Shown here in pieces: positions 10,766 to 45,197 of a stretch of 64,000 nucleotides of DNA. This DNA is from Escherichia coli (GTDB taxonomy: Bacteria > Pseudomonadota > Gammaproteobacteria > Enterobacterales > Enterobacteriaceae). A program made the position numbers and the translations under genes. Below the pieces are notes generated by a model. It searched no databases. It was not told the DNA's origin and saw nothing but the letters and a program-made list of their open reading frames with translations. The stretch is from NCBI RefSeq assembly GCF_030013205.1, contig NZ_CP122648.1; one strand, 5' to 3'. Positions within the stretch are counted from its first letter, which is position 1. Each line of letters begins with the position of its first letter.

Positions 10766-12499
10766 TTACATACGCTCTACTGTCTCAATACCCAGCGTAT
10801 CCAGACCCAGTTTCAGCGTCTTCGCCGTCAGTTGTGCCAGTTTCAGACGGCTGTTACGCACTTCTTCGTTTTCTGCGCTGAGGATCGGGCAGTGCTCGTA
10901 GAAGCCAGAGAACAGACCAGCCAGATCGTACAGGTAAGCACACATCACATGCGGCGTGCCTTCACGGGCAACCACGGTGAGGGTTTCTTCAAACTGCAGC
11001 AGGCGAGCTGCCAGTTGCGCTTCACGATCTTCACGGATGATAACCGGAGCTGCAGCCAGTTGCTCTTCGTCAATTTCTGCTTTACGGAACACGGACAATA
11101 CACGCGTGTATGCATACTGCATGTATGGCGCGGTATTACCCTCAAACGCCAGCATGTTGTCCCAGTCGAAGATGTAGTCCGTGGTGCGGTTTTTGGAGAG
11201 ATCCGCATATTTCACCGCACCAATACCAACCGCGTTAGCCAGTTTTTCCAGCTCGTCGGCTGGCATATCCGGGTTCTTTTCTGCCACCAGACGACGTGCA
11301 CGCTCCAGGGCTTCATCCAGCAGATCGGCCAGTTTCACTGTACCACCCGCGCGGGTTTTGAACGGTTTGCCGTCTTTGCCCAGCATCATGCCGAACATGT
11401 GGTGTTCCAGCGGTACGGATTCCGGTACATAGCCTGCTTTACGGACGATAGCCCACGCCTGCATCAGGTGTTGATGCTGACGGGAGTCGATGTAATACAG
11501 CACGCGATCGGCATGCAGTGTTTCATAACGATATTTCGCACAGGCGATATCAGTGGTGGTGTAGAGATAGCCACCATCTTTCTTCTGAATGATCACGCCC
11601 ATCGGTTCGCCTTCCTTGTTTTTGAACTCATCAAGGAATACGACGGTCGCGCCTTCACTTTCTACTGCCAGACCTTTGGCTTTCAGGTCCGCCACGATAC
11701 CCGGCAGCATTGGGTTGTAGAGACTTTCACCCATGACGTCATCGCGGGTCAACGTCACGTTCAGACGATCGTAGGTGATCTGGTTCTGCGTCATGGTGAT
11801 GTCGACCAGTTTGCGCCACATCTCGCGGAAATATTCGTCACCGCTTTGCAGTTTGACTACGTAGTTACGTGCACGCTCGGCAAACTCTTCATCTTCGTCG
11901 TAATGCTTTTTCGCATCGCGGTAGAAACCTTCAAGGTCAGCCAGCTCCATTTCACCGGCGTTTTCTTGCTGCTGCTTTTCCAACCACGCAATCAGCATAC
12001 CGAACTGAGTACCCCAGTCGCCGACGTGGTTCGCGCGAATCACTTTGTGACCGAGGAACTCCAGAGTACGCACTGCCGCGTCACCAATAATGGTAGAGCG
12101 CAGGTGACCGACGTGCATCTCTTTCGCCACGTTCGGAGCGGAGTAGTCAACCACAATGGTCTGTTTTTCTGGCGTAGCAACACCGAGACGATCGGACGCC
12201 AGCGCCTGCTGAACATGATCAGCCAGGAAGGCTGGATCAAGAAAAATGTTGATAAAGCCTGGACCGGCGATCTCAACTTTGCTGGCGATACCGTTAAGAT
12301 CCAGATGAGTCAGCACCTGCTCTGCTAATTGTCGCGGTGCCATACCCAGTTTTTTAGCAACTGCCATCATGCCGTTAGCCTGATAGTCGCCGAACTGAAC
12401 TTTTGCTGACTGACGAACCTGCGGTTCGCAATCCGCAGGCGCGCCTGCCGCAATCATGGCCTGACGGACTTTTTCTGAGAGAAGAGCCTGAATATTCAC
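10766..12499 (-). CDS. argS: Arginine--tRNA ligase
   Basis: 577 aa; class I aaRS with HVGH motif ([14 protein letters not shown]). Confidence 0.97.
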
Positions 12500-12714
12500 C
12501 GGAATACCTTACATTGATGAAGCGAGCAAAAATTGCCCGCACCAGTTAAAGAAATTAGGGCGGGAGTATACTGCAAATGGCTGTTTTCGTCAGCAACGTG
12601 CGCGTGGCGTATTGCCGTTTTCACTATTGCATCAGAAGCGGCGTGAAATCAGCGGTTGGTTGGCGCAGGGCAACAGGGTAAATTAACGCTTTTACTGAAA
12701 GACGAAGAGTGATT

Positions 12715-13281
12715 ATGGCGAACTGGCAATCTATCGACGAGTTGCAGGATATTGCATCGGATTTACCGCGATTTACCCACGCATTAGATGAACTTTCCCG
12801 CCGTCTGGGGTTGGATATCACTCCGCTGACTGCCGATCACATTTCCTTGCGTTGCCATCAAAACGTCACCGCTGAACGCTGGCGTCGCGGGTTTGAACAG
12901 TGCGGCGAGCTTTTGTCAGAAAATATGATCAATGGCAGACCGATTTGTCTGTTTAAATTGCATGAACCGGTACAGGTTGCGCACTGGCAGTTTTCCATTG
13001 TGGAGCTACCGTGGCCCGGGGAAAAACGTTACCCGCACGAAGGTTGGGAACATATTGAAATCGTTCTGCCGGGCGATCCAGAAACGCTGAATGCCCGTGC
13101 GCTGGCATTGCTTTCTGATGAAGGACTCAGCCTGCCGGGGATCTCAGTTAAAACCAGTTCGCCAAAAGGTGAGCATGAGCGATTACCGAACCCGACGCTG
13201 GCGGTCACCGATGGCAAAACGACCATTAAATTTCATCCGTGGTCCATTGAAGAGATCGTTGCCAGCGAGCAGTCAGCGTAA
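12715..13281 (+). CDS. yecM: Uncharacterized protein YecM (VOC/glyoxalase-like fold)
   Basis: 188 aa from ATG 12715 (MANWQSIDELQ); six-frame ORF starts at GTG 12709. Confidence 0.9.
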   Translation: MANWQSIDELQDIASDLPRFTHALDELSRRLGLDITPLTADHISLRCHQNVTAERWRRGFEQCGELLSENMINGRPICLFKLHEPVQVAHWQFSIVELPWPGEKRYPHEGWEHIEIVLPGDPETLNARALALLSDEGLSLPGISVKTSSPKGEHERLPNPTLAVTDGKTTIKFHPWSIEEIVASEQSA

Positions 13282-13285
13282 TTAA

Positions 13286-14041
<756 letters not shown>

Positions 14042-14087
14042 TTTTTACCGTTGCATCATGTCGCCCAATATGATGCTTGCTCGTACC

Positions 14088-14120
14088 AGGCCCCTGCAAT
14101 TTCAACAGGGGCCTTTTTTT
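14088..14120 (+). terminator. Rho-independent terminator downstream of cutC
   Basis: aggcccctg-caatttcaa-caggggcc followed by a T7 run. Confidence 0.8.
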
Positions 14121-14426
14121 ATCCCTGAATAGTATAAAAAATGAACGATTACCGCGATCTGTTGAGCGGGTGACAGTGCACATAGCGTTGTGCTAAAAAT
14201 TTTTATATATTCATATTAATTATGTAATTTAAATTACTAAAACTGACAAATATGTATTCTAAATAACAACTGGGTTATTCCTTAGCAATTAATGATTACA
14301 TTGTAATAAATCATATTCTTTATCGATTATTTCAGGCAGTGTTGTGCCGAATTATGCAAGCGGTCAATTCGTTGTATATTTAATTATACAATGATTTCGG
14401 TGTTCTGGAATTAATTAGAGGAATCT

Positions 14427-15527
14427 ATGCGAGGGAAAAAACGCATTGGGTTAATGTTTTTGCTGATAGCGGTTGTGGTTGGTGGCGGCGGGTTATTGCT
14501 GGCGCAAAAAGCCTTACATAAAACGTCGGATACAGCATTTTGCCTTTCCTGCCACTCGATGAGTAAACCTTTTGAGGAATATCAGGGAACTGTCCACTTT
14601 TCGAACCAGAAAGGGATACGTGCGGAATGTGCCGATTGCCATATTCCAAAGTCAGGGATGGATTATTTATTTGCTAAATTAAAAGCATCTAAAGATATTT
14701 ATCATGAATTTGTTAGCGGCAAAATAGACAGTGACGATAAGTTCGAAGCGCATCGTCAGGAAATGGCCGAAACAGTATGGAAAGAATTAAAAGCCACTGA
14801 CTCTGCAACGTGCCGTAGTTGCCATTCTTTTGATGCCATGGATATTGCCTCGCAAAGTGAATCTGCGCAGAAAATGCATAACAAAGCACAAAAGGGCGGC
14901 GAAACCTGTATCGATTGTCATAAAGGCATTGCTCATTTTCCGCCAGAAATAAAAATGGATGACAACGCGGCGCATGAGCTGGAAAGTCAGGCCGCTACTT
15001 CAGTGACTAATGGCGTACATATTTATCCTTTCAAAACTTCTCGCATAGGCGAGCTGGCTACCGTGAATCCTGGTACCGATCTCATCGTCGTTGATGCCAG
15101 TGGCAAACAGCCGATCGTTCTGTTGCAGGGTTATCAAATGCAGGGCAGTGAAAACACGCTCTACCTGGCGGCAGGTCAACGGCTGGCACTAGCCACATTA
15201 AGTGAAGAAGGTATCAAGGCGCTCACGGTAAACGGGGAATGGCAGGCTGACGAATACGGCAATCAATGGCGTCAGGCGTCTTTACAGGGTGCGCTTACCG
15301 ATCCCGCATTAGCGGACCGTAAACCGCTATGGCAATACGCTGAAAAACTTGACGATACCTATTGCGCTGGTTGCCATGCCCCTATTGCCTCCGACCATTA
15401 CACCGTCAATGCATGGCCGTCCATTGCCAAAGGAATGGGGGCGCGAACCAGCATGAGCGAAAACGAACTGGACATTTTGACGCGGTACTTCCAGTACAAC
15501 GCCAAAGATATTACCGAGAAACAGTGA
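14427..15527 (+). CDS. torY: Pentahaem c-type cytochrome TorY (NapC/NirT family)
   Basis: 366 aa; several CxxCH haem motifs; N-terminal membrane anchor. Confidence 0.93.
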
Positions 15528-15551
15528 TCCTCGTTGATCAGGGAGGAAGTT

Positions 15552-17981
15552 ATGACATTAACAAGACGTGAATTTATTAAACACAGCGGTATTGCCGCTG
15601 GGGCGCTGGTGGTGACATCGGCTGCACCGCTACCCGCATGGGCAGAAGAGAAGGGTGGCAAAATCCTCACCGCGGGCCGTTGGGGAGCGATGAACGTAGA
15701 AGTGAAGGACGGCAAGATTGTTTCTTCAACAGGCGCGCTGGCGAAAACTATACCGAACTCCTTACAGTCTACGGAGGTGGATCAGGTACACACCACGGCG
15801 CGTATTCAGCATCCGATGGTGAGAAAAAGCTATCTCGATAATCCACTGCAACCGGCGAAAGGTCGTGGCGAAGATACCTATGTACAGGTGAGCTGGGAAC
15901 AAGCATTAAAACTGATTCATGAGCAACACGATCGTATTCGTAAAGCTAACGGACCATCGGCCATTTTTGCCGGATCTTACGGCTGGCGATCTTCTGGCGT
16001 GTTGCATAAAGCGCAAACCTTACTGCAACGTTATATGAACCTTGCGGGCGGTTATTCCGGGCATAGCGGCGATTATTCAACCGGTGCGGCACAGGTGATC
16101 ATGCCGCATGTGGTGGGTTCCGTGGAGGTGTATGAACAGCAGACCTCCTGGCCGCTGATTCTGGAAAACAGCCAGGTTGTGGTGCTGTGGGGGATGAACC
16201 CGCTGAATACCTTGAAAATTGCCTGGAGCAGTACCGATGAGCAAGGGCTGGAATACTTCCATCAGCTGAAAAAATCTGGCAAACCCGTGATTGCCATTGA
16301 TCCTATCCGCTCCGAAACCATCGAGTTCTTTGGCGATAACGCGACCTGGATCGCGCCGAATATGGGGACCGACGTGGCGCTGATGTTAGGGATTGCGCAC
16401 ACCTTGATGGTACAAGGTAAGCACGATAAGGCCTTCCTGGAAAAATACACCACCGGCTACCCGCAGTTTGAAGAGTATCTGGCAGGCAAGAGCGATAATA
16501 CGCCGAAGAGCGCGGCCTGGGCGGCGGAAATTTCTGGCGTACCGGAAGCGCAGATAGTCAAACTCGCTGAACTGATGGCGGCGAATCGCACAATGCTGAT
16601 GGCAGGCTGGGGAATTCAGCGCCAGCAATATGGTGAACAGAAACACTGGATGCTGGTGACGCTGGCGGCAATGTTAGGGCAGATTGGTACACCGGGCGGC
16701 GGTTTTGGTTTCTCTTATCATTACTCCAACGGTGGCAACCCGACGCGTGTTGGCGGCGTGCTGCCGGAAATGTCTGCGGCGATTGCCGGACAGGCCAGCG
16801 AGGCCGCTGATGATGGCGGAATGACGGCGATTCCTGTTGCCCGTATCGTCGATGCGCTGGAAAATCCTGGTGGTAAATATCAGCATAACGGTAAAGAACA
16901 AACGTATCCGAATATCAAAATGATCTGGTGGGCGGGTGGCGGTAACTTTACCCATCACCAGGATACTAATCGTCTGATTAAAGCATGGCAGAAACCGGAG
17001 ATGATCGTCGTTTCTGAATGCTACTGGACCGCAGCTGCTAAACATGCAGATATCGTATTACCGATCACCACATCGTTTGAGCGCAATGACTTAACGATGA
17101 CCGGTGATTACAGCAACCAGCATATTGTGCCGATGAAGCAGGCTGTCGCTGCGCAATTTGAAGCGCGTAACGATTTTGACGTGTTTGCCGATCTTGCTGA
17201 ATTACTCAAACCTGGCGGAAAAGAGATCTATACCGAAGGTAAAGATGAGATGGCGTGGCTGAAATTTTTCTATGATGCCGCTCAGAAAGGTGCCCGTGCG
17301 CAACGCGTGACTATGCCGATGTTTAATGCCTTCTGGCAGCAAAATAAACTGATCGAAATGCGCCGCAGCGAGAAGAACGAACAGTACGTTCGTTATGGTG
17401 ATTTCCGCGCCGATCCGGTGAAAAATGCGCTGGGTACGCCAAGCGGCAAAATTGAGATTTACTCCAAAACGCTGGAAAAATTTGGCTATAAGGATTGCCC
17501 GGCACACCCAACCTGGCTTGCGCCTGATGAGTGGAAGGGTACCGCCGACGAGAAGCAGTTGCAGCTTCTGACCGCACATCCGGCACATCGTTTACACAGT
17601 CAGCTTAACTATGCGGAACTGCGCAAAAAATATGCGGTTGCCGATCGTGAACCGATCACTATTCACACCGAAGATGCTGCTCGCTTTGGTATTGCGAATG
17701 GCGATCTGGTGCGTGTCTGGAACAAACGTGGTCAGATTCTGACAGGCGCGGTGGTGACTGACGGGATCAAAAAAGGCGTGGTATGCGTGCATGAAGGTGC
17801 ATGGCCAGATCTGGAAAATGGCTTGTGTAAAAACGGCAGTGCGAACGTGTTAACGGCGGATATCCCCAGCTCTCAGCTGGCAAATGCCTGTGCCGGTAAC
17901 TCTGCGCTGGTGTATATCGAAAAATATACGGGTAACGCACCGAAGTTAACGGCGTTTGATCAGCCAGCTGTTCAGGCATAA
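15552..17981 (+). CDS. torZ: TMAO/biotin sulfoxide reductase TorZ (molybdoenzyme, Tat-exported)
   Basis: 809 aa from ATG 15552; twin-arginine signal [10 protein letters not shown]; six-frame ORF starts 6 codons earlier. Confidence 0.93.
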
Positions 17982-17989
17982 GACGTGAA

Positions 17990-18009
17990 AAGCGCCCGGA
18001 AACGGGCGC
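17990..18009. terminator. Hairpin between convergent torZ and cmoB (probable bidirectional terminator)
   Basis: agcgcccg-gaaa-cgggcgct perfect 8-bp stem. Confidence 0.6.
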
Positions 18010-18015
18010 TAATCT

Positions 18016-20163
<2,148 letters not shown>

Positions 20164-25052: not shown

Positions 25053-25574
25053 ATGGCTATTATTCTCGGCATTGACCCGGGTTCGCGCGTGACCGGCTAT
25101 GGCGTCATCCGCCAGGTAGGCAGGCAACTCTCCTACCTGGGTAGCGGATGCATACGCACCAAAGTGGATGATTTACCGTCTCGTCTGAAGCTCATCTATG
25201 CGGGCGTGACGGAAATCATTACCCAGTTCCAGCCTGATTATTTCGCCATTGAACAAGTCTTTATGGCGAAGAACGCTGACTCAGCCCTGAAACTGGGGCA
25301 GGCACGCGGCGTGGCGATTGTGGCGGCGGTGAATCAGGAATTGCCGGTATTTGAATATGCGGCACGTCAGGTAAAGCAAACGGTGGTAGGTATTGGTAGT
25401 GCTGAAAAAAGCCAGGTGCAGCATATGGTCCGCACCTTGCTGAAACTGCCCGCTAATCCACAAGCGGACGCCGCCGATGCGTTAGCTATCGCGATTACCC
25501 ATTGTCACGTCAGTCAGAATGCGATGCAGATGAGCGAATCGCGGCTGAACCTGGCGAGAGGGCGACTGCGTTAA
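25053..25574 (+). CDS. ruvC: Holliday junction resolvase RuvC
   Basis: 173 aa from ATG 25053 ([17 protein letters not shown]). Confidence 0.95.
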
Positions 25575-25575
25575 G

Positions 25576-26211
25576 TTATACCGCCTCGGTCAGTTCCGGC
25601 TGAGGCGTTTCTACTCCCTCCGCATGAATCAACACCAAACCCGGATGATGCCACAAACTGGCTGGCGTGACGGTTTTACGCTCCCACGGAATAGAACCCA
25701 GGAACCAGAATTTCCAGAAAGTGAGTTTTGCATTCGGATTGCTATTTAACAATTCTCCAAACGTCTCTATTTCACCCACCGGAATACATAGCGCCTCTTT
25801 ATAAATATCAAAAACAAATTTTGAACAGAACTGGCGCGAAGATTCGTATTTAAAACCGGTGTGGTAAAGTTTGCGTAGCCGGGAGGGAACCTGTTCAACA
25901 ATTCGTTGTTTTTGTTGTTCTGTAAGCCCGGCGTCTAATCGCTTTATAGCATAGCGTTGATTAGAAGAACGTTTAATAAAACGAGATAGCGTGGTGATGG
26001 TTGAAAGGGGAACCCGGCTTTCTGCAACCAGGAAGTCTTCACCGTTATGACCGATAATGATCCCGACGTGATTACTCCAGCAATTTGATGCAGCTGATAT
26101 TTGACCAAATAAGGCAGCACCTATACATGTAAAGACGATATCACCAATTTCATATTCAGCAGGATAATTAATATTCACGTTGTCATTCCATTGAAATAGA
26201 TACGAATACAC
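25576..26211 (-). CDS. yebB: Uncharacterized protein YebB
   Basis: Syntenic ORF between ruvC and ruvA; start codon uncertain, longest ORF given (211 aa). Confidence 0.7.
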
Positions 26212-26385
26212 GTAATAGCATAAAAAATTTATTTTTTCAGGAGTCGCAATGTATATTTTTATTACGCATTTCTTCGCTGAATATGTAATATTTAAATATT
26301 TGCTTCCAATATAACCTGTAGAATAAATTATACTGCGCCATTTTTCAGATCATCGGGACGCCTCGCAAGTTTTCTTCATCCTTCG

Positions 26386-26401
26386 CTGGATATCTATCCA
26401 G
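26386..26401. promoter_or_regulatory. LexA (SOS) box upstream of ruvAB
   Basis: CTGGATATCTATCCAG, a perfect CTG-N10-CAG palindrome about 50 nt upstream of the ruvA start. Confidence 0.8.
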
Positions 26402-26452
26402 CATTTTTTTATCATACAGCATTATCTTTGATTCATTACGCAGGAGCGTCAT

Positions 26453-27064
26453 GTGATAGGCAGACTCAGAGGCATCATCATTGAAAAACAACCCCCGCTG
26501 GTGTTAATTGAAGTGGGCGGCGTAGGCTATGAAGTGCATATGCCGATGACCTGTTTTTATGAACTCCCTGAAGCGGGTCAGGAAGCGATCGTTTTCACCC
26601 ACTTTGTGGTGCGTGAAGACGCGCAATTGCTGTACGGTTTTAACAATAAACAAGAGCGCACGTTGTTCAAAGAGTTGATCAAAACCAACGGCGTCGGCCC
26701 GAAGTTGGCGCTGGCGATCCTCTCCGGAATGTCAGCGCAGCAGTTCGTTAATGCCGTTGAGCGTGAAGAAGTGGGGGCGCTGGTGAAACTGCCGGGTATT
26801 GGCAAAAAAACCGCCGAACGCTTGATTGTTGAAATGAAAGACCGATTTAAAGGTTTGCATGGCGATCTCTTTACGCCAGCCGCCGACCTGGTACTCACGT
26901 CTCCTGCCAGCCCGGCGACCGACGATGCTGAACAGGAAGCGGTTGCTGCGCTGGTGGCGCTGGGCTATAAACCACAAGAAGCAAGCCGCATGGTGAGCAA
27001 AATCGCTCGCCCTGACGCCAGCAGTGAAACATTAATTCGCGAAGCCCTACGCGCCGCGTTATGA
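26453..27064 (+). CDS. ruvA: Holliday junction branch-migration protein RuvA
   Basis: 203 aa, GTG start; (M)[20 protein letters not shown]... Confidence 0.96.
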
Positions 27065-27069
27065 GGTAA

Positions 27070-28083
<1,014 letters not shown>

Positions 28084-35779: not shown

Positions 35780-36054
35780 GATGTAAAGAGACTCACGGGT
35801 AATGACGATTTCCGCACTGAAAGAAATCGAAATGCAGTTTTGTCAGATATTACGCCTGTGTGCTGTGTTAATGACAAAAGCAGATAAAAAAGTTGTTATT
35901 TTTTTTCATAACATGATCAGTGTCAGATTTTTACCCAATGGAAAACGATGATTTTTTTATCAGTTTTGCCGCACTTTGCGCGCTTTTACCGTAATCGCAC
36001 GGGTGGATAAGCGTTTACAGTTTTCGCAAGCTCGTAAAAGCAGTACAGTGCACC

Positions 36055-36070
36055 GTAAGAAAATTACAAG
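36055..36070. promoter_or_regulatory. Candidate HexR operator upstream of zwf
   Basis: GTAAGAAAATTACAAG, an imperfect GTAA-N7-TTAC palindrome about 50 nt upstream of the zwf start. Confidence 0.4.
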
Positions 36071-36116
36071 TATACCCTGGCTTAAGTACCGGGATAGTTA
36101 ACTTAAGGAGAATGAC

Positions 36117-43545: not shown

Positions 43546-44715
43546 TTAAGCCGCAACCGTCTGTGTGACGGATTTACGCTGGCCTCCATGGGCAGAAACG
43601 ACGAGTCCCGCCGCTTGTAATTCCAGTATGCCCTTGCGTTTGATGTTGAGCGCCGCGTTGATATCGCGGTCATGTTCAACTCCACACTCTGGACACTGCC
43701 AGATGCGCTTATGTAATGGCATCTCCGACATTTTGTGACCGCAGCAGTGGCAGGTCTTCGAACTGGCGAACCATTGATCCAGTTTCACCAGATGCACACC
43801 TTTCTCTGTTGCTTTGTATTCCAGTTTTGTGATGAATCCAGACCATCCAGCATCGCCTATCGCACGAGCCAGATGGTGATTTTTCATCATATTTGCCGTT
43901 TTCAATGTCTCGACAATTACCGCTTGGTTTTCGTCAACAATTGCGCGAGATAACTTGTGCTGGAAATCGGCACGGGCACTGGCTACCCGTTCGTGAACGG
44001 CTGCAAGTTGTATTCTGGCTTTGCGCCTGTTTGCGCTCCCTTTTTTCTTACGGGACAGTGCTTTCTGCTTCCGGCGCAGGTTGCGACTTGCATTGATTAG
44101 GTGGCGGGGACTGGCAATTTTATTGCCGTCCGATTTGATGACAAAATGCGCCAGCCCCATATCCAGCCCTGTCACATTTGATATCAGTGCGGGCTTTGCC
44201 GGCGCTTCCATCCCGTCGTCACAGAGTAACGACGCGTAGTATTTCCCGGTTGCGCTGCGGCTCAACGTGATACTTTTCAGCATTCCCGTAATTTCACGAT
44301 GTAAACGCGCCTCAATCGGCAAGATTTTCGGTATTTTTATCGCACCATCAAGGACTTTTATGCCAACACAATGATAGCTCGATTGTCTGCCGTGTTTACT
44401 TTTAAAGGTTGGTTTACCTGCTTTCAGTTTCGGATTGAAAAAGTTAGAAAAAGCCACGTCGAGGTTAATTACCGCCTGCTGCAACGCAATAGAATCATAT
44501 TCTTTAAGCCATCCATACCGGCGGGATTTCTTCGCCACTGCAAGCAGTGGTTTGAGGTCTTTACGCGGGTTTAAATTTACGCGGTGCCGCTGGTAAGAAT
44601 GTTTCTTGATATGCAGAGCTTTGTTGTACGCAAAACGCACTGCACCGAACTGGGCGTTGATAAATTCAGCCTGTTCTGGTGTCGGGTAGATGCGTACTTT
44701 TGTTGCTCTTAACAT
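43546..44715 (-). CDS. tnpB: IS605-family TnpB (RuvC-like RNA-guided endonuclease, OMEGA effector)
   Basis: 389 aa; RuvC-I GLDMGLAHF, RuvC-II AVIVETL, zinc finger CHCC...CPEC, RuvC-III HDRDINAALNI; looks intact. Confidence 0.85.
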   Translation of the reverse strand: MLRATKVRIYPTPEQAEFINAQFGAVRFAYNKALHIKKHSYQRHRVNLNPRKDLKPLLAVAKKSRRYGWLKEYDSIALQQAVINLDVAFSNFFNPKLKAGKPTFKSKHGRQSSYHCVGIKVLDGAIKIPKILPIEARLHREITGMLKSITLSRSATGKYYASLLCDDGMEAPAKPALISNVTGLDMGLAHFVIKSDGNKIASPRHLINASRNLRRKQKALSRKKKGSANRRKARIQLAAVHERVASARADFQHKLSRAIVDENQAVIVETLKTANMMKNHHLARAIGDAGWSGFITKLEYKATEKGVHLVKLDQWFASSKTCHCCGHKMSEMPLHKRIWQCPECGVEHDRDINAALNIKRKGILELQAAGLVVSAHGGQRKSVTQTVAA

Positions 44716-44771
44716 AATCAGCGCTCATTGATATAATGCTTTTATTTTAACACTTTAGGTGAATATATCAA

Positions 44772-45197
44772 TTGAGTAATCATGATGATTTACTGGCGGG
44801 ATTTCTCCGCAAACGACACAGTGTCAGTAAGCTGGTTGTGCACCTTATTTTTACGACAAAGTATCGACGCAAACTATTCGACAGTCAGATGATCGCTCAG
44901 TTGCGTGAGGCTTTTGGCTCCGCTGCGGCAAAGCTTGAATGCGAAATTATTGAGATGGACGGGGAGCCAGACCATGTACACCTGCTGGTTGCCTACCCGC
45001 CAAAACTGGCGGTCAGTGTGATGGTCAATAATTTAAAATCGGTATCATCACGTTTGCTACGCCAGCAGAACGCGCATTTACGTATGCAGAGTAAAACGGG
45101 GCTTTTGTGGTCGAGATCGTACTTTGTCTGTAGCACCGGAGAGGCAACGATTGAAACGCTCAGAGCCTACGTTCAGAGTCAGTCAACACCTGATTGA
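44772..45197 (+). CDS. tnpA: IS200/IS605-family transposase TnpA (Y1 HuH)
   Basis: 141 aa; HuH motif HVHLLV, catalytic-Tyr region WSRSYFVCSTGEA; first in-frame start is TTG, so start uncertain. Confidence 0.8.
   Translation: MSNHDDLLAGFLRKRHSVSKLVVHLIFTTKYRRKLFDSQMIAQLREAFGSAAAKLECEIIEMDGEPDHVHLLVAYPPKLAVSVMVNNLKSVSSRLLRQQNAHLRMQSKTGLLWSRSYFVCSTGEATIETLRAYVQSQSTPD

Follow-up and report, generated by a model that had tools for sequence, protein, structure and literature searches.

The A+T-rich upstream region of torYZ in Escherichia coli, a probable target of H-NS/StpA silencing at the left end of an Escherichia-specific insert

Xenogeneic silencing by H-NS is known from several loci in Escherichia coli and Salmonella, such as bgl with its upstream silencer, hlyE, and proU with its upstream and downstream elements. 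A second relevant system is torCAD, which encodes the main TMAO reductase of E. coli and is paralogous to torYZ, with genes for a pentahaem cytochrome and a molybdoenzyme and an upstream control region. The torCAD operon is induced by TMAO via the TorS/TorR tor boxes. The expression of torYZ is constant and low according to a passage in Ravcheev 2007 that cites Gon 2000. The literature also describes torYZ as modestly inducible by stress (HOCl, copper, and paraquat) and TorZ as able to reduce TMAO, biotin sulfoxide, or methionine sulfoxide. Here, the DNA upstream of torY was analyzed. It is very probably the upstream regulatory region of torYZ, silenced by H-NS/StpA on account of its A+T-richness and located within a 3.9-kb Escherichia insert.

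The stretch of 64,000 nucleotides analyzed here (the window) carries argS (minus strand), yecM, cutC, torY, torZ, cmoB (minus strand), and cmoA (minus strand) in this order and reads opposite to the K-12 orientation. In this region, it was 100% identical to E. coli strain W13-16. The 3' end of cutC contains MicL, a sigmaE-dependent sRNA that is also annotated at the equivalent K-12 position, and the MicL segment was 100% conserved across Escherichia species. The A+T-rich block starts at the first base past the Rfam match to MicL and ends at the last base before the torY ATG (Table 1). The MicL terminator, which an earlier note on this DNA had called the cutC terminator, forms the left boundary and is not part of the block. 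At the other side of the operon, a G+C-rich hairpin, AGCGCCCGGAAACGGGCGCT, was found at 17991-18010 between the convergent torZ and cmoB stop codons and is probably a bidirectional terminator.

Table 1. Positions of features at the torYZ locus, in window coordinates
Feature	Position	Strand	Remarks
H-NS ChIP-chip region, aerobic, mapped to the window	about 12373-15639		Myers 2013
H-NS ChIP-chip region, anaerobic, mapped to the window	13792-15467		Myers 2013
MicL sRNA	13813-14120	+	cutC 3' end; Rfam RF02654, 368 bits, E 3e-112
MicL terminator hairpin and T-run	about 14087-14121		left boundary, outside the A+T-rich block
A+T-rich block, torYZ upstream control region (very probable)	14121-14426	+	29.7% G+C
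Escherichia-specific insert	14124-18015	+	3.9 kb: block, torY, torZ, terminator hairpin
Predicted sigma70 promoter GTGACA-18-TAAAAA	14170-14199	+	Shimada 2014, Table 2, bioinformatic; located here in the sequence
Extreme A+T core	14194-14293		17% G+C; lowest 100-bp window in 64 kb
H-NS high-affinity motif TCGATAAATT, two 8/10 matches that overlap	14317-14332		
Conserved promoter-proximal segment	14331-14426	+	blocks 14331-14355 and 14366-14426
Shine-Dalgarno AGAGGAA of torY	14417-14423	+	
torY (pentahaem cytochrome c)	14427-15527	+	annotation
torZ (S-/N-oxide reductase)	15552-17981	+	annotation

The earlier note had described about 300 bp of markedly A+T-rich DNA between this terminator and torY and had proposed a G+C profile as a check. 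The description was confirmed with exact coordinates. Positions 14121-14426 contained 29.7% G+C, compared with a window mean of 51.2% (standard deviation of 4.0 for 306-bp windows over the 64 kb). Only 0.03% of the 306-bp windows were equally low, every one of them overlapping 14121-14426, and the block was the most A+T-rich 306-bp stretch within 64 kb. The 64-kb minima at 100, 150, and 200 bp (17%, 20%, and 23.5% G+C, respectively) were all found here, from about 14194, and the run quoted in the earlier note was located inside the core at 14203-14242. In addition, TpA accounted for 12% of the dinucleotides in the block versus 4.2% in the window, an approximately threefold difference. The composition of torZ was host-like, and within the insert only the beginning of torY and the control region before it still looked foreign.

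For such a comparison, intergenic spacers are a fairer null than coding DNA, and the block was therefore also set against the window's 36 annotated spacers (mean of 44.0% G+C, standard deviation of 8.0). The whole cutC-torY spacer, with 33.2% G+C, was the fifth lowest of the 36 and the lowest among the 11 spacers of at least 150 bp, which had a mean of 44.6% and a standard deviation of 5.8. Four short spacers were as A+T-rich or more so (27-33% G+C), and the intergenic DNA of the window is already low, at about 44% G+C. Both observations would suit an ordinary A+T-rich intergenic promoter with a composition inside the normal intergenic range. However, the spacer is the lowest of the long ones, the core is the lowest 100- to 200-bp window in 64 kb, and the binding and expression data described below indicate real silencing, so that this explanation is barely credible. 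The composition of the block is extreme even among the local spacers, beyond the mere contrast between coding and noncoding DNA.

Comparison with related genera placed the block at the left end of an insert. The homology of Salmonella and Citrobacter to the window stopped at 14123 and restarted at 18016-18018, and that of Trabulsiella stopped within 14120-14123 and restarted only from 18089. The insert therefore begins 3 bp past the MicL terminator. A scan for CutC with one genome per species yielded 56 loci. In every non-Escherichia locus with enough flanking sequence (>40 loci), cutC was followed directly by the convergent cmoB, as in Citrobacter, Salmonella, Trabulsiella, Pseudocitrobacter, Lelliottia, Kluyvera, Leclercia, Edwardsiella, Morganella, and others; torY-torZ lay between the two genes in Escherichia loci only. 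Direct adjacency of cutC and cmoB thus holds for Citrobacter, Salmonella, and about 20 further species of Enterobacterales. In 22 species outside Escherichia, the ancestral spacer between cutC and cmoB had 44-57% G+C, whereas the blocks upstream of torY in three other Escherichia species had 26-31%, indicating that the A+T-richness belongs to the insert and not to the site. Thus, the view that torYZ stands apart from the neighbouring core genes, which the earlier note had put forward from composition, is borne out by synteny, yet torYZ was present in 5425 of 5426 complete E. coli genomes and is therefore itself core within the species.

Losses at the locus were also observed. Escherichia sp. 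MOD1-EC7003 is without torYZ, but torZ 3' fragments and REP-like sequence remain, and the region of the hairpin AGCGCCCGGAAACGGGCGCT is present there in two copies. The retained torZ fragments identify this loss, as read from the sequence, as a secondary deletion starting near 14151. In strain EcPNK006, IS5 is found where cutC is missing together with the spacer and the first half of torY, and torZ contains an internal stop codon. The torYZ locus has thus decayed independently in two lineages. An intact copy of the spacer was missing in about 25 of 5424 genomes.

Given that the insert starts 3 bp past the MicL terminator and that neither an integrase nor a repeat was found at its ends, the block might hide an sRNA, a gene for a small protein, or what is left of the mobile element by which torYZ arrived. 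Several searches argued against this. An Rfam scan of 12000-16000 with E values up to 1 gave MicL alone, no open reading frame of at least 20 amino acids was present inside 14197-14424, and a repeat search returned nothing beyond the short, imperfect repeats, direct or inverted, that A+T-rich DNA is expected to contain. No match was found in the phage collection, and the full-length matches in the plasmid collection were limited to E. coli records of very large size (0.39-4.9 Mb) that were taken to be chromosomal sequence. A hidden element of this kind is therefore highly unlikely. The nearest foreign torYZ-like DNA, from Aeromonas and Klebsiella, was about 70% identical.

Published binding data place H-NS on the block. 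The torY-cutC spacer of K-12 is an H-NS site in genomic SELEX in vitro (Shimada 2014, PMC3946193, Table 2). In ChIP-chip experiments, H-NS regions were reported at K-12 U00096.2 1955116-1956791 under anaerobic conditions and at 1954944-1958210 under aerobic conditions (Myers 2013, PMC3688515, Table S3). These coordinates were placed by an offset of +1976 to U00096.3 together with the K-12 annotation, and the offset was checked with the sigma70 peaks of aspS/yecD and yecM/argS, which landed in the correct spacers. Both mapped regions span the entire block and torY. Thus, the comparison with H-NS ChIP data that the earlier note had suggested showed coverage of the block in K-12 with and without oxygen, and the spacer ranking and the ChIP-chip regions together contradict a normal intergenic composition lacking H-NS enrichment. 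By ChAP-seq, torY and the torYZ transcription unit were H-NS bound (Higashi 2016, PMC4720273, S2 Table), and H-NS on cutC was limited to the extreme 3' end (Higashi 2016, PMC4720273). In the same study, two predictors flagged torY as horizontally transferred.

The binding and expression data used here come from K-12, with ChAP-seq data also from SE11 and SE15, all strains other than that of the window. Between K-12 and the window, the block was 93.5% identical, while the flanking genes reached 96.6-98.1% and the MicL terminator 100%. This divergence above that of the flanks agrees with reports that DNA bound by H-NS diversifies faster. The strain of the window would be expected to behave like K-12 at torYZ.

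The main H-NS signal in the block is its composition and TpA content, and the motif and curvature signals are weak. For the high-affinity motif TCGATAAATT, the block contained no strong match, the best being two 8/10 matches. In the window, 78 matches of 8/10 were observed versus 64 ± 8 expected, a number reached by 4 of 100 shuffles and thus only marginally above chance. In a wedge model, the predicted curvature was moderately raised. The mean bend of the block was at the 96th percentile with an ordinary end-to-end ratio, and the predicted bend peaked at 22.7 degrees at 14193, compared with 23.4 degrees for the 99th percentile of the window. The A+T core at 14194-14293 is likely the H-NS nucleation zone.

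Similar features were seen elsewhere in the window. The highest predicted curvature was that of the hexR-zwf divergent spacer (35780-36116), with a peak near 35960 and a core of 25% G+C. The yebB-yobI-ruvA spacers at 26179-26452 were the second most A+T-rich site, with 23% G+C per 100 bp, and lie wholly inside a ChIP-chip region of H-NS from Myers 2013 (about window 25201-27116). For these spacers, ruvA-yobI (26315-26452) is flagged "HNS" and yobI-yebB is listed with no flag (Shimada 2014, PMC3946193).

The expression data agree with silencing. In RNA sequencing of the wild type versus delta-hns delta-stpA, the logFC was -6.19 for torY (p 6e-75; Srinivasan 2015, PMC4288151, sheet "hs-wt") and -3.54 for torZ (p 1e-27), whereas the flanking genes were unchanged (cutC, -0.05; cmoB, -0.37; neither significant) (Srinivasan 2015, PMC4288151). 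Derepression in the double mutant thus amounted to about 73-fold for torY and about 12-fold for torZ and was confined to the insert. With binding from SELEX, ChIP-chip, and ChAP-seq and a rise of 2^6.19 for torY and 2^3.54 for torZ, the H-NS-silenced promoter that the earlier note had surmised from composition is well supported. When hns-stpA was compared with rpoS-hns-stpA, the value for torY was -0.12 and not significant (Srinivasan 2015, PMC4288151), and derepressed transcription therefore needs no RpoS. As reported previously, torZ is among the genes with FNR binding and regulation only if H-NS/StpA is absent, and the expression of these genes goes up with temperature (Myers 2013, PMC3688515).

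Derepression might also be indirect, for example via an H-NS-repressed activator, with H-NS on the block being of no consequence. The double mutant is pleiotropic, with hundreds of genes changed, and an FNR peak within torZ appears in the mutant only (Myers 2013, PMC3688515), which would be in line with such an effect. However, the response was strictly local, torY rising 73-fold next to flat cutC and cmoB, and three independent binding datasets place H-NS directly on the derepressed locus. An indirect effect is accordingly improbable. Another possibility is that silencing is exerted mainly by H-NS inside torY, at a downstream element as in proU, with the upstream block as a passive A+T-rich spacer. 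The ChIP-chip regions run across all of torY, and its 5' third has only 40-42% G+C, with one 100-bp window (14641-14740) at 29%. On the other hand, the A+T content of the upstream block, with its 17% G+C core, is far higher, and the in vitro SELEX site was assigned to the spacer. Moreover, such an element would be compatible with upstream silencing, because the two kinds of site usually act together through bridging. As the main site, an element inside torY is unlikely, though somewhat less so than an indirect effect. Both explanations are less likely than silencing through the upstream block because the SELEX site is assigned to the spacer and derepression is strictly local.

For silencing through the block, the following course of events may be proposed. 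In an ancestor of Escherichia, a segment of 3.9 kb was inserted after cutC/micL and before cmoB, and the block arrived or evolved as part of this segment. Its extreme A+T content and dense TpA steps would lead H-NS, with the paralogue StpA, to bind and nucleate there preferentially. From the A+T core, an H-NS filament would spread or bridge over the promoter and into torY, whose 5' third is A+T-rich, and RNA polymerase would be excluded or trapped, with no productive transcription of torYZ. The low constitutive level of torYZ in the wild type would then result from this block of productive RNA polymerase. Repression would be direct and would act at initiation.

The position of the promoter was considered next to these data. 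The torY-cutC spacer binds the RpoD (sigma70) holoenzyme in genomic SELEX in vitro (Shimada 2014, PMC3946193), and an in vitro SELEX peak of the RpoS (sigmaS) holoenzyme has a coordinate that maps to about 14421, at the torY start (Shimada 2017). In the sigma70 ChIP-seq list, peaks are present in the neighbouring spacers and none in the torY-cutC spacer (Myers 2013, PMC3688515). The predicted promoter GTGACA-18-TAAAAA is a weak consensus match whose -35 element is deleted in E. whittamii; its function is therefore doubtful, and the actual promoter may lie closer to torY. A consensus scan of 13900-14600 gave no plus-strand -35/-10 pair, in an insensitive search that missed the MicL terminator too.

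Conservation was scored as identity to the window per column in five Escherichia sequences. The left 80 bp (14121-14200) were the least conserved part of the block, and the portion of the A+T core at about 14193-14245 was well conserved. The blocks 14331-14355 and 14366-14426 had a mean identity of 94-97%, with 88-90% of the columns fully conserved. The segment 14331-14426 may accordingly be the core promoter or an operator. It contains a perfect palindrome, TTGTATA-N6-TATACAA, at 14372-14391, which is unique in the window. Comparison of the palindrome and other strings by eye with consensus sequences for TyrR, LexA, CRP, Fur, FNR, ArcA, ModE, and TorR gave partial matches, as A+T-rich DNA does, and none of these regulators was adopted as a candidate. 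The tor-box-like strings in the block were likewise only by-eye 8/10 resemblances in A+T-rich DNA. A GalR site predicted in silico is listed at K-12 1958198, corresponding to about window 14361 (PMC5110547). It is possible, though unlikely, that the block, instead of being a decaying relic of foreign DNA, is a selected silencer that keeps an old, genus-wide S-/N-oxide reductase operon cryptic pending a specific anti-silencing input. Such an input could be a factor on the palindrome at 14372-14391, temperature, or oxidative or copper stress.

In strain YJ3, IS1A was found in the conserved block at 14344-14352, 75-83 bp upstream of torY. In this one complete genome, the element lies between the A+T core and the promoter-proximal region. 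By analogy with the bgl operon, it could be an activating allele, and natural IS insertions could occasionally act as activating alleles of torYZ. Insertion sequences were also seen at other sites in the window. An IS200C copy at 1-529 is inserted between cheW and tar, a junction found in 4 of 5426 complete genomes, with strain ETEC4079 as the best match. This junction sets the window apart from strain W13-16, to which it is nearly identical elsewhere. Between yebE and ptrB, at about 43546-45197, lies ISEc46 (IS200/IS605 family) with tnpA and a TnpB/InsQ RNA-guided endonuclease gene.

In published data from anaerobic growth, a sigma70 ChIP-seq peak is located inside the 3' end of torY, at window about 15464 (K-12 U00096.2 1955119), about 88 bp before the torZ ATG. 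Together with the 12-fold derepression of torZ versus the 73-fold derepression of torY, this peak suggests an internal, H-NS-independent torZ promoter near 15464. A simple consensus scan gave no promoter at about 15464.

Silencing, as derived from existing data, explains both the "constitutively low" expression of torYZ and its elusive physiological role. In K-12, torYZ belongs to the strongly H-NS/StpA-silenced loci. Studies on the function of TorZ should therefore consider hns backgrounds or promoter-swapped constructs. In addition, the boundary of an old Escherichia-specific insert is now fixed at 3 bp past the MicL terminator.

In general, the torYZ locus resembles the xenogeneic-silenced loci bgl, hlyE, and proU of E. 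coli and Salmonella in that an A+T- and TpA-rich sequence forms the 5' end of a lineage-specific insert. As at such loci, H-NS occupies the DNA on a kilobase scale, from the promoter into the first gene, wild-type expression is very low, and derepression is tens-fold when H-NS and StpA are lacking. Naked DNA of the region binds RNA polymerase in vitro, and its sequence diverges faster than the flanks, again as at silenced loci. Unlike at typical xenogeneic-silenced loci, the insert is old and fixed, being present in other Escherichia and in all but one of the E. coli genomes scanned, and torZ, unlike bgl-, hlyE-, and proU-type loci, is host-like in composition. The torYZ operon is a typical H-NS-silenced, anciently acquired locus, and its silencing is already recorded in genome-scale datasets.
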